A program made the position numbers and the translations under genes. From a phage, in sequence record PX880102.1: a DNA stretch of 64,000 nt, one strand, 5' to 3'. The notes below the pieces were generated by a model. It ran no database searches. It saw only the letters and a program-made list of their open reading frames with translations, and was not told the origin of the DNA. Below are positions 27,239 to 42,277 of this stretch, in pieces. Every line of letters starts with the position of its first letter. Position 1 is the stretch's first letter.

Positions 27239-27280
27239 ATATACCCCTTTAGTTAGATAAACCTATTTATAACTTTTGCA

Positions 27281-31621: not shown

Positions 31622-31951
31622 TCAATTAGAAAATAAATTTATCCAAGACTGTTCTTTAATTAAAAATGGCTCAGAATCATATGCCATTAAACTTTGGGTG
31701 ATTAGTCCTTTAAAAGGTCCATCAATAAATTCCATGGTAAAATATGGAATTTTATTCATTAATCTTGCATTAGGAGCAGTACACAAAACTCTGCATCCTT
31801 TGAATACACCTTTTTGTAATTTGTATTGCTTAGGATAAAATTCGCTCAAGACGTTGTTATTTGCCAAAATTTCAAAATGATTCACCAATTTATTTTTAAT
31901 AGTTTTTGGCGAAAAATAAAGATATTCGAAAAGCTGTGTGTCTGTCATCAT
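31622..31951 (-). CDS. hypothetical protein (vs.7-like)
   Basis: ATG at 31951 (ATGA coupling) gives 109 aa; alternative ATG at 32002. Confidence 0.5.
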   Translation of the reverse strand: MMTDTQLFEYLYFSPKTIKNKLVNHFEILANNNVLSEFYPKQYKLQKGVFKGCRVLCTAPNARLMNKIPYFTMEFIDGPFKGLITQSLMAYDSEPFLIKEQSWINLFSN

Positions 31952-32535
31952 TGCATTCCGATTACGAAAAACTGCGGACGAGTAATACCACCAATGCAAC
32001 ATTTACTATTACAGCAGTGTTGCACAGTTTCAATATGAATATCATAAATTTTATCCATATCAGGAGATTTAACAGGCTCATCGATTATATACAAAATTCG
32101 CGAAAGCGATAAACCTCTGAACTTGCTTCCTTTATTACCGATAAAACTACGGACAGAATCAGTAAATAAGCGGAATCGAATATCATCACTAGAATAACGA
32201 GAAAATTCTTTTTTAATGTGGCCCGCAGAAATTTTAGCGTAAGCTGAAGTATTAGAAAGAACAATAACTGTTCCACCATCATACAGCCAATTAGCAGCAA
32301 AGTTAGTCACAGCAGTTGATTTACCGGATTGACGTCCACCATCTAGTCGAAGTGTGCAATACTGTTTGAGTAAGTCTTCAAATGGTAGGATATAATCGTT
32401 TTTACAAATTTCTTCTACTCTAGCATCAGAATGGTATGTAAAAGCATTCATCAGGGATAGATAAGGACCAGTTAAAAATGTTCTCATTTTATTCTCTCTA
32501 AATTTGGGCCATTCCATGGCGCATGAATTGTCCAT
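31948..32535 (-). CDS. P-loop NTPase-like protein (vs.8-like)
   Basis: Walker A GGRQSGKST; ATG at 32535 (195 aa) or 32487 (179 aa). Confidence 0.6.
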   Translation of the reverse strand: MDNSCAMEWPKFRENKMRTFLTGPYLSLMNAFTYHSDARVEEICKNDYILPFEDLLKQYCTLRLDGGRQSGKSTAVTNFAANWLYDGGTVIVLSNTSAYAKISAGHIKKEFSRYSSDDIRFRLFTDSVRSFIGNKGSKFRGLSLSRILYIIDEPVKSPDMDKIYDIHIETVQHCCNSKCCIGGITRPQFFVIGMQ

Positions 32536-32640
32536 TTCTGTATTTACCCATTACCGCACTTGGGCTCGACCTTATTACAGGTTGGCGGGAATCCCTCATA
32601 GAATCGTGAGGTCCAGCTTGTTCCCATATTTCTTATTTGC

Positions 32641-33114
32641 TTATTTGAATGATTTGACGTACTGAATAGAGCCTTTACTATTCACGAAAGCGATTTTACC
32701 ATTTTTGTTATACATTGTAGCAGTACGCTGATAACCATAAGTTTGTTTACCAGATTGATAACCAACTAATGCAAAATTATCTTCGCCCATTTTATTCTGT
32801 TTGGCGCGGATACGTTCATGACCGTGCGCCATAAGAACCTTAGCATCGCCAGTTGAAATTGATCTACGAGTTTTTTCATCTTCAACTGTATTAACAAAGT
32901 CGTCAAATGAATCAAATTTAGCATGAGATTTATTATACAGTTTTCCATCTACTGCATAATTATATCCCTGTACATCCATCTCAACTTCTGTACCATCATC
33001 CAATACAGCAGTAATTTTTTGACCTTTTTTAAATTTCAAAAGATCAGTAAAAGATTCAGCAATAATTTGAGAATTAATAGCTGCTTCAGTGATAAATTCT
33101 TGATATGTTTTCAT
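32641..33114 (-). CDS. internal-protein-like virion protein with capsid targeting sequence (IP-A)
   Basis: 157 aa; N-terminus MKTYQEFITEA matches T4 IP capsid-targeting sequence MKTYQEFIAEA; ATG start. Confidence 0.7.
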   Translation of the reverse strand: MKTYQEFITEAAINSQIIAESFTDLLKFKKGQKITAVLDDGTEVEMDVQGYNYAVDGKLYNKSHAKFDSFDDFVNTVEDEKTRRSISTGDAKVLMAHGHERIRAKQNKMGEDNFALVGYQSGKQTYGYQRTATMYNKNGKIAFVNSKGSIQYVKSFK

Positions 33115-33123
33115 ATATTTCCT

Positions 33124-33540
33124 TTAAATGTAAATATTTTTGCCGTAGTATTTATACCAGTGTGGCTTCATTAAAATTTTTTCATTGAGTCGTTGTTGAC
33201 TCAATTTAATAGCTGATTTGCATGGGTTATAATCATTTTTCCATTCTGCTGAAATATCGCTGATGTCAGGAACTTCAGTATCTTTTATACTGAACCCACG
33301 TTTTAAGCATTCCGTTATAATGTCTGATTGACGCTTTCGCAAAAATTCTAACTTATCGTAAAAGAACGTAACATGACCAGAACCTAAAATAAACTCGGAA
33401 GATATTTTAAAATCTTTAACCCGTTTACCATTTGCCACATGTTTACGAACTATACCAAAAACACGTGGCAATTCACGGTATTCTGCGATTAAATGTTGAT
33501 CAGCAAGTTCAGATACTAAAGTCAAATTAATACGAGTCAT
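33124..33540 (-). CDS. denV: endonuclease V (pyrimidine-dimer DNA glycosylase)
   Basis: 138 aa; [17 protein letters not shown]...WYKYYGK matches recalled T4 DenV. Confidence 0.92.
33149..33156 (-). promoter_or_regulatory. late promoter box upstream of IP-A
   Basis: Exact TATAAATA on minus strand 35 nt upstream of IP-A ATG, inside denV coding sequence. Confidence 0.5.
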
Positions 33541-33565
33541 TTTATCCCTCCAAGTAATTGTGAAT

Positions 33566-33595
33566 ATACTATCACAATTCTAGGAGAAAGTAAAC
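33566..33595 (-). promoter_or_regulatory. early promoter of denV
   Basis: Minus strand GTTTAC-N17-TGATAGTAT. Confidence 0.55.
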
Positions 33596-33599
33596 AACT

Positions 33600-34130
<531 letters not shown>

Positions 34131-38154: not shown

Positions 38155-38628
38155 TTATTTGATTTGTTTAGCAGACCAAATGCGGTCTTTAATAATTTTT
38201 TGAATGTCTTCAACATACTCAAGAGAGTGAACATGTGGATTATCTTTGAAACTATAAGCACGGGCTAACTTTTGGCCTTCGGTTTTGATTACTAAAAGCT
38301 CTTTAAGGATAGCTTCATATTTAGAGATAATTCCTTTAACGATATTTTTTTCTTGTGCAGCTTTAGGATCTGCTTTAGGAGCAGGTTTACCCGAAGCCTT
38401 TGCAAAAGCAGCGCCAGTAGCAACTAGACTTTTCCAGGCCATACTAACCGCATTTCCCGTAAATCCTTCTGCTTTCATGTCGCGAGCAAATTGGAATCGT
38501 GATTCGTCAGAAGCATCTTTATAGGAATATTTACCCGCTGCAATGGCTGCTTTTGCGACAGCTTGAATTTCGGTGCTAGATGCTTCATTTAACACCGCTT
38601 CATTTAAAAATTGAGTATATGATTTCAT
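38155..38628 (-). CDS. internal-protein-like virion protein with capsid targeting sequence (IP-B)
   Basis: 157 aa; N-terminus MKSYTQFLNEAVLNEA resembles IP capsid-targeting sequence; Ala/Lys-rich; RBS AGGAAA. Confidence 0.65.
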   Translation of the reverse strand: MKSYTQFLNEAVLNEASSTEIQAVAKAAIAAGKYSYKDASDESRFQFARDMKAEGFTGNAVSMAWKSLVATGAAFAKASGKPAPKADPKAAQEKNIVKGIISKYEAILKELLVIKTEGQKLARAYSFKDNPHVHSLEYVEDIQKIIKDRIWSAKQIK

Positions 38629-38668: not shown

Positions 38669-38676
38669 TATTTATA
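38669..38676 (-). promoter_or_regulatory. late promoter box upstream of IP-B
   Basis: Exact TATAAATA on minus strand about 40 nt upstream of IP-B ATG. Confidence 0.55.
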
Positions 38677-40336: not shown

Positions 40337-40945
40337 TTATTTATTACGTGAAAAAGACTGTTCTATCAATTCTGGACACTTTCGTTCTATCCATTTTCTA
40401 GCTTTTTGTGGGCTTATACCTATTATTTTAGCAGCTTTACTAACCCATCCAAATTTAGAATAATCGATTTTAACTAATTCTTCGTAAATTTCATCAGTTA
40501 AAATCTTTTCATTAATATTTACCAGTAAATGATATAATTTATTATCATTAGCAATTTTAATGAATCTTTTATAGTTTCCGCCTTTACTTAAACCTAATGA
40601 AGTAATTGCAGATGATATAGTAGCCGAATTTAATAACGCGTTTAAAATTTCTTCATCACTAACATTATAACGCTTTTTATTATTTTTAATATTTTTACCA
40701 GCAAAAGTATCAGTTTGCGAATGGCAGTTTGGACATAATAATCTTAAATTAGATTTAAGATGATTTTTGTTATTTCCATCAATATGGTCTAATTGCAGAA
40801 CAATATGCTTATTTTGCCATTTTGAAATTTTACAAATTGCACACTCATATGGAAAAATATTTTCTTTTATTATTTTGTCTTTCAGCTTTCCTGTACTAAA
40901 ATTTGGATGTTTTCCTTCAAAAATTTCAGCTAATTTAGTATCCAT
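40337..40945 (-). CDS. HNH-family endonuclease (free-standing homing-endonuclease-like)
   Basis: ATG at 40945 gives 202 aa (track start is TTG at 40969); motif HIVLQLDHIDGNNKNHLKSNLRLLCPNCH plus upstream CAIC; stop 6 nt before tRNA-Leu. Confidence 0.8.
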   Translation of the reverse strand: MDTKLAEIFEGKHPNFSTGKLKDKIIKENIFPYECAICKISKWQNKHIVLQLDHIDGNNKNHLKSNLRLLCPNCHSQTDTFAGKNIKNNKKRYNVSDEEILNALLNSATISSAITSLGLSKGGNYKRFIKIANDNKLYHLLVNINEKILTDEIYEELVKIDYSKFGWVSKAAKIIGISPQKARKWIERKCPELIEQSFSRNK

Positions 40946-41055
40946 AATATAATTCCCAATTATTAACAAAGGCTCTTAAGCAAGAACCCTTGATGATAGA
41001 GGGTATTAATCAGTGCGATATGAGTTAATAATAACAAATAATTCTTAAAGCATAT

Positions 41056-41989: not shown

Positions 41990-42277
41990 TTACAAAAGAT
42001 TTTTAGCAATAATCTTGAGATGTGCCGCAGAAATGTGTTTAGCTTTAAACAACGCAGTTTCTTCAGCAGGAGAGATAATGATTGTAGCACCATCCTTTTT
42101 AGCAGACCACCCATCACCTAGGTAAACAGTACCTTTGATTTCTTCGCCATCAACCAAGCTAATCATTGGTTTACCTTCTCGTCCTTTATTTGCTTTAATA
42201 ACTTCAGAAGTAAGAGTAGCTTCAGTAATAGTAGAAACCGGGGTAGTTGTAGAAGTAAACTCTTTGAAAGTTTTCAT
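41990..42277 (-). CDS. ipI: internal protein I (IPI; anti-restriction, virion-packaged)
   Basis: 95 aa (T4 IPI precursor length); N-terminal CTS-like MKTFKEFTS; position beside 57B; RBS AGGAAAA. Confidence 0.8.
   Translation of the reverse strand: MKTFKEFTSTTTPVSTITEATLTSEVIKANKGREGKPMISLVDGEEIKGTVYLGDGWSAKKDGATIIISPAEETALFKAKHISAAHLKIIAKNLL

Follow-up and report, generated by a model that had tools for sequence, protein, structure and literature searches.

In phage T4, two internal-protein genes lie between e and denV in the order e-ipIII-ipII-denV-vs.8, and in T2 and RB7 the same interval reads e-ip4-vs.8, without denV. Shuffling of this locus by way of the leaders of its genes was reportedly described by Repoila and co-workers in 1994, and a study by Arbiol and co-workers from 2010 is said to be among those of cassette shuffling in the hyperplastic regions of T4-like phages. 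The PeSL concept and shuffling in these regions have been presented (PMC4122927; Comeau et al., 2014), and shuffling at internal-protein loci is also covered in a paper reporting that the T4 targeting sequence suffices for the packaging of foreign proteins (PMC3012670).

The functions of several internal proteins have been established. Ip1, Ip2 and Ip3 inhibit one GmrSD each, a different one in every case (PMC12373910). IPIII is required on ECOR17, and Bas37_0260, a targeting-sequence protein encoded at the ipI locus, inhibits McrBC. One paper on these proteins speaks of "at least 10" internal proteins, a count that it credits to Repoila et al. 1994 (PMC12373910).

Here we analyse a 157-aa ORF in a segment of a T4-like (Tequatrovirus) genome. 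The whole stretch of DNA that was analysed, 64,000 nucleotides of record PX880102.1, is called the window below.

Identity and conservation of the ORF

The protein encoded by the ORF starts with MKTYQEFITEAAINS. It matches Pfam DUF7412 (PF24183) with residues 1-157 on profile positions 1-158 (E 1.3e-95, 318 bits against a cut-off of 27), the only Pfam match found, and PHROG 3155, "internal virion protein", with an E of 1e-101. Copies in BYEP02 and slur03 are 100% identical to it in tblastn. The ipIV products of T2 and PP01 and the SA20RB protein labelled "Ip4 internal head protein" are 99.4% identical, and UniProt Q38388, "Ip4 [Enterobacteria phage K3]", is 98% identical. Depositors have labelled the RB7 and RB68 genes "Ip4" and the Sf21 gene "similar to phage T2 Ip4". 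Based on the family matches and the near identity to these named proteins, the ORF is the already named T-even internal protein Ip4/IpIV and not a new one.

Searches with tblastn found ip4 in 471 phage records. Orthologues at 60-80% identity are present in about 160 records, mostly of Klebsiella phages and some of other genera, and homologues are known from Escherichia, Klebsiella, Proteus and Serratia phages. Between the window and T2, ip4 has a single amino-acid change at a pS of 0.24 (24% synonymous divergence), which corresponds to a dN/dS of 0.009; the ratio is 0.07-0.17 where Klebsiella and Proteus phages are compared. Judged by these ratios, ip4 is clearly a real, functional gene under strong purifying selection. 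Overlapping plus-strand ORFs (e.g. 32923..33174) were set aside as spurious, all of the conservation lying in the minus-strand frame.

Beyond its N-terminus, Ip4 does not resemble the internal proteins of T4 encoded at this locus. Only residues 1-13 align with T4 IPIII. An apparent 31% match to T4 IPII is due to the targeting sequence, and once the N-termini are taken off, the best alignment gives an E of 0.5, which is no significant similarity. Nor was homology detected to the characterised inhibitors IPI_T4 (PF11634), Ip2 and Ip3, the targeting sequence alone aligning with IPIII, and Ip4 is not similar to the other targeting-sequence-like ORF in the window. Searching PDB sequences with a profile returned nothing below an E of 0.5. 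Among viral proteins, the sole significant structural neighbour of the Ip4 model is Q38388, the K3 Ip4; there was no informative fold match, and no similarity in fold or sequence to any known inhibitor. Among 1.8 billion representative proteins, a profile search added three distant DUF7412 members only, plus fragments. One of the three is encoded on a 2.8-kb contig, where its neighbours are uninformative. The literature searched holds no mention of DUF7412. An enzyme active site involving the conserved residues H64 and H99 was considered for Ip4 and dropped because the distant members do not retain these histidines.

The first-pass annotation, which was made from the sequence alone, had described a T4-like targeting sequence on a body unlike IPII and IPIII and had proposed a different injected protein. 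The likeness of the N-terminus to that of the T4 proteins (10 of 11 residues identical) and the dissimilarity of the body agree with our comparisons, and neither orthology to IPII or IPIII over the whole length nor the T4 gene order was found. The protein is thus distinct from IPII and IPIII, as proposed, but it had not gone unrecognised: Ip4 was named in K3 and annotated in T2, PP01, RB7, RB68 and Sf21.

Arrangement of the e to vs.8 locus

On the minus strand of the window, e is followed by a 59-nt spacer, denV, a 9-nt gap, ip4 and the vs.8 homologue (Table 1). The order e-denV-ip4-vs.8 is shared by BW-1, Sf21, IME339, RB68 and others, and about 167 records span the denV-ip4 junction. Other phages arrange the interval differently. 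In Bas41 and teqhal, an additional gene of 105 aa, ipX, is inserted (e-denV-ipX-ip4-vs.8), and one IMG/VR contig (L005) reads e-ipX-ip4-vs.8. In Klebsiella and Proteus phages, ip4 abuts e. UGKSEcP2 has the order e-ipII-denV-vs.8; a clean deletion has taken out ip4, and denV reads through. On comparison of these sequences, the e to vs.8 interval is a polymorphic internal-protein locus, and ip4 is one of its cassettes.

Table 1. Coordinates of ip4, its neighbours and associated sequence elements in the window
Feature	Position	Strand	Description and basis
ip4 (ipIV), precursor of internal head protein Ip4	32641..33114	-	157-aa ORF; PF24183, PHROG 3155
Capsid targeting sequence MKTYQEFITE	33085..33114	-	Residues 1-10; ends in gp21 motif I-T-E/A; match to T4 IPII/IPIII
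Possible second gp21 cleavage motif I-A-E/S	33055..33063	-	Residues 18-20; motif scan, family alignment
Internal-protein cassette leader AAAAATATTTACATTTAAAGGAAATAT	33115..33141	-	Contains Shine-Dalgarno AAGGA; conserved in other cassettes
3' boundary of the ip4 cassette	32626..32640	-	15-nt spacer; by-eye comparison of window, T4 and T2
vs.8 homologue	31948..32487	-	179-aa form starting MRTFLTG; PHROG 1488; synteny with T4/RB7 vs.8 and BW-1
denV, endonuclease V / pyrimidine-dimer glycosylase	33124..33540	-	138 aa; Pfam Pyr_excise; PHROG 1183 (E 3e-62); synteny with T4 and BW-1
Exact T4 late-promoter octamer TATAAATA	33149..33156	-	In denV W-Y-K-Y codons (Tyr-Lys-Tyr), 34 nt before the ip4 ATG
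e-denV spacer	33541..33599	-	59 nt; GTTTAC...TAGTAT early-promoter-like element overlapping a stem-loop (PeSL-type)
e	33600..34094	-	
Two tandem TATAAATA late promoters upstream of e	34108..34128	-	Candidate source of e-denV-ip4 read-through

This arrangement matches what the first-pass annotation had described. It had placed T4 ipII and ipIII between denV and e, which is correct (vs.8-denV-ipII-ipIII-e), had put the ORF on the vs.8 side of denV with 59 nt between denV and e, and had set this gene order against that of T4. Its description of internal-protein loci as hyperplastic fits the gene content between e and vs.8, which varies among T4, T2, RB7, Bas41 and UGKSEcP2.

The ip4 cassette is joined closely to its upstream neighbour. 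The 5' part of its leader also forms the last codons of denV, K-N-I-Y-I-stop, where T4 denV has K-A-I-Y-A-stop, and the denV stop codon (33124..33126) overlaps the ip4 Shine-Dalgarno sequence. The denV gene lies immediately upstream of ip4, and the two are probably co-transcribed. Each cassette opens with a common module, (A)AAATATTTA(CATTT)AAAGGAAAC-AT-ATGAAAACATATCAAGAATTTAT, which consists of a leader of ~50 nt and the targeting sequence and which precedes ipII and ipIII in T4, ip4 in T2 and RB7 and ipX in Bas41. The leader of ip4 in the window is identical to that of T4 ipII. At the other end of the cassette, the sequence becomes homologous to the T4 denV-vs.8 junction (GGGAACAA...) again at 32625, as placed by eye. 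The stem-loop in the e-denV spacer has a predicted RNA folding energy of -18.3 kcal/mol (z -3.8), and the same element follows e in T4 (before ipIII) and in T2 (before ip4). The window shows cleanly how the leader of an internal-protein cassette can become joined to the 3' terminus of the gene next to it.

Several observations concern the neighbouring genes and other phages. The vs.8-homologue ORF extends over 31948..32535 (-), but its upstream part is out of frame with the gene as annotated in T4, and the start is therefore likely to be MRTFLTG at 32487. The homologue contains a P-loop-like GGRQSGKS motif and matches a terminase large-subunit PHROG weakly (E 5.5e-6). Its annotation is inconsistent, since public names vary between "terminase large subunit", "endoribonuclease" and hypothetical. 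In Escherichia phage UGKSEcP2 (L009 1481..2032), denV is annotated as 183 aa. The ip4 deletion in this phage is bounded by the leader (..TTTACATT) and the final codons of ip4 (..TCATTCAAATAA) and removed the denV stop codon, and denV therefore reads on into the vs.8 leader. The 105-aa ipX cassette (MKTYQEFIAESAAGQRVEGG...), which stands before ip4 in some phages (Bas41, L011, 1607..1924; L005, 2667..2984; L016, 707..1024), belongs to PHROG 3966, "unknown function", has no Pfam match and is annotated as an internal head protein in some records only. In Klebsiella T4-like phages (H67/H122), an ip3-like gene (about 87% to T4 IPIII) and an ip4-like gene are found at similar coordinates, about 35.8-36.4 kb, in related genomes, which suggests that in this genus, too, the two alternate as cassettes at a single site.

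The octamer within denV

The reverse complement of 33149..33156, in the 3' end of denV, is TATAAATA, the exact octamer noted in the first-pass annotation. Its further proposal, that the octamer drives late expression of ip4, fared less well, and we consider it unlikely that the octamer is a selected, dedicated late promoter for this gene. The octamer has the right orientation and precedes the ATG by 34 nt, a spacing like that of the octamers before e, before ORF 38155..38628 and before the ORF downstream of the octamer at 27264..27271. In addition, T4 denV, which has no internal-protein gene behind it, reads TACAAATA at the equivalent codons. However, the window contains 14 copies of TATAAATA against 11.2 +/- 3.3 in shuffled sequences. 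At such a chance level the octamer alone is uninformative, and only its position before a start codon is suggestive. In a sample of 15 phages with an internal-protein gene behind denV, the junction carries TATAAATA in six, TATAAGTA in another six and TACAAGTA in the other three, with all differences being synonymous. BW-1 and Sf21 are, like the window phage, TATAAATA phages, and RB68 and G29 are TATAAGTA phages. Given the window's own codon usage, Tyr-Lys is expected to be written TAT-AAA 62% of the time, so that the octamer is the default spelling of Tyr-Lys-Tyr. UGKSEcP2 retains TATAAATA even though its ip4 is deleted. Conversely, where ip4 is the gene right behind e (T2, RB7, Klebsiella and Proteus phages), no exact octamer was found within 120 nt. 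As ip4 is expressed there without it, expression of the gene in general does not depend on the octamer. These comparisons detect no selection on the octamer, which is probably incidental.

A T4 late promoter needs little more than the octamer box, and the octamer may therefore act as a late promoter in the window phage. In general, ip4 would be transcribed from upstream, with the tandem boxes before e and the early-type promoter before denV as candidates. A search of the minus strand from e to ip4 revealed no intrinsic terminator.

Targeting sequence and predicted processing

The first 11 residues of Ip4, MKTYQEFITEA, differ at one position from MKTYQEFIAEA of T4 IPII and IPIII; without the last residue, 9 of 10 are identical. 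In an alignment of 14 family members, M1, K2, F7 and E10 are invariant, and so is E20, even in members that are 60-70% identical. The distant DUF7412 members retain a targeting-sequence-like start, MNFxxFLNES. In the T4 IPIII record X04567, residues -10 to -1 are annotated as a removed signal. The sequence I-T-E10/A in Ip4 conforms to the gp21 site, (I/L)-x-E followed by a small residue, and cleavage at this position is predicted. At the second motif, the residue preceding the invariant glutamate by two positions (P3) is always I, L or M across the family alignment, and the residue following it (P1') is always S or A. Residues 10-20 have low confidence in the structural model and are taken as a flexible linker. 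The predicted mature protein has 137-147 residues, about 15.5-16.5 kDa, and is basic, with a pI of about 9.2-9.3.

Other ORFs in the window touch on the same subject. A T4-type IPI, a GmrSD inhibitor (PF11634, E 2e-53), is encoded at 41990..42277 (-); together with Ip4, it indicates that the window phage carries at least two internal proteins. A third targeting-sequence-like ORF lies at 38155..38628 (-), between e.8 and the tRNA cluster. Its product begins MKSYTQFLNE/AVLNE/ASS and has 157 aa and a pI of 9.5, and an exact TATAAATA is located 40 nt upstream, at 38669..38676 (-). This ORF belongs to PHROG 2280, "unknown function", has no Pfam match and occurs in 512 phage records, in which the annotations sampled all read "hypothetical protein". 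Possibly, its product is an internal (injected) protein that has gone unrecognised. Between this ORF and ipI, by the tRNA region, an HNH endonuclease ORF (40337..40969, -; PHROG 14736, E 6e-124) probably encodes a homing endonuclease.

Discussion

Combining the sequence comparisons with what has been reported for other internal proteins, we think it likely that Ip4 is a packaged, trimmed and injected anti-defence protein that comes from a shuffled e to vs.8 cassette. The targeting sequence would take the precursor into the prohead scaffolding core, and the prohead protease gp21 would cut it after I-T-E10 and possibly again after I-A-E20. The basic mature protein would stay with the DNA in the head, be injected at infection and neutralise a host "first-response" defence, for which a modification-dependent (type IV) restriction enzyme is the most probable candidate. 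Cassettes would be swapped by recombination at the module of ~50-nt leader and targeting sequence and at PeSL-type promoter/stem-loop elements. Such recombination would explain the order e-denV-ip4-vs.8 in the window where T4 has e-ipIII-ipII-denV-vs.8.

Each of the four internal proteins whose function is known specifically inhibits a type IV restriction enzyme, and an anti-defence role is therefore the best guess for Ip4, plausibly with a specificity of its own. The conservation of Ip4 is unusually strong for an arms-race protein, which counts against this role, and our literature search found no direct or proteomic support for Ip4 in virions or for its injection. Silas et al. assayed "ip4-10", of which ip4 is equated with Ip4 of the window by shared nomenclature only, against active GmrSD variants and saw no reproducible inhibition (PMC12373910, Supplementary Fig. 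9). A more tentative proposal, to which we give somewhat less than an even chance, is that Ip4 is injected and inhibits a host defence outside the GmrSD variants screened so far. If this is true, its conservation (dN/dS about 0.01 within Tequatrovirus) and its spread over phages of Escherichia, Klebsiella, Proteus and Serratia would suggest that the target is conserved and widespread and does not diversify rapidly.

The same conservation would also suit a packaged and injected protein that serves as a general structural or DNA-associated core component, for instance in charge neutralisation, DNA packing or as an aid to ejection. The basic pI of the mature protein, the single amino-acid change relative to T2, the position of ip4 right after e in several genera and the failure to find a GmrSD target for ip4-10 are all in line with such a role. 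However, nature dispenses with the gene, which is absent from T4 as well as from UGKSEcP2, and the inhibitors among the internal proteins are specific ones; we regard a structural role as improbable. Much less probable still is that the N-terminal similarity is left over from cassette recombination, Ip4 being a late or early protein of the cytoplasm that is never packaged. The leader and targeting-sequence module is also a recombination joint, so the N-terminus could have been carried along passively. The invariance of M1, K2, F7, E10 and E20 in divergent members, the similar start retained by the distant DUF7412 members and the ability of the T4 targeting sequence to package foreign proteins by itself (PMC3012670) all argue against such passive carriage. 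In practical terms, Ip4 is of interest beside Ip1, Ip2, Ip3 and Bas37_0260, each of which has been paired with a type IV restriction enzyme.

Comparison with the known systems places Ip4 among the T-even internal proteins. Like Ip4, T4 IPI* (PF11634, a GmrSD inhibitor) is small and has a targeting sequence and an (I/L)-x-E maturation site about 10-20 residues in, that of Ip4 being recognised from its sequence motif, and a presumed injected anti-restriction role is common to both. The two proteins differ in locus and share no similarity in sequence or fold. T4 IPII and IPIII are basic proteins from the same e to vs.8 locus, with the same leader, Shine-Dalgarno sequence and targeting-sequence module, and packaging and gp21 processing are expected for them and for Ip4 alike. 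They differ from Ip4 in length, in lying on the opposite side of denV and in their mature parts, for which no homology was detected; Ip2 and Ip3, unlike Ip4, have known GmrSD targets.

With respect to PeSL- and leader-mediated shuffling in T4-like phages, the window has the expected stem-loop and early promoter after e and the module at cassette boundaries. It is one more instance of this process and nothing different in kind. Gene, name, protein family and locus polymorphism have all been recorded before, and the arrangement is present in well over a hundred sequenced phages. The closest counterparts are Ip4/IpIV of K3 and T2 (Q38388; NC_054931 YP_010073775), which are the same protein, with 98-99.4% identity over all 157 residues. 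They also share with ip4 of the window the targeting sequence and vs.8 as the downstream neighbour. In T2 and RB7, ip4 comes directly after e, on the leader that T4 uses for ipIII and without denV, whereas in the window denV stands between e and ip4.
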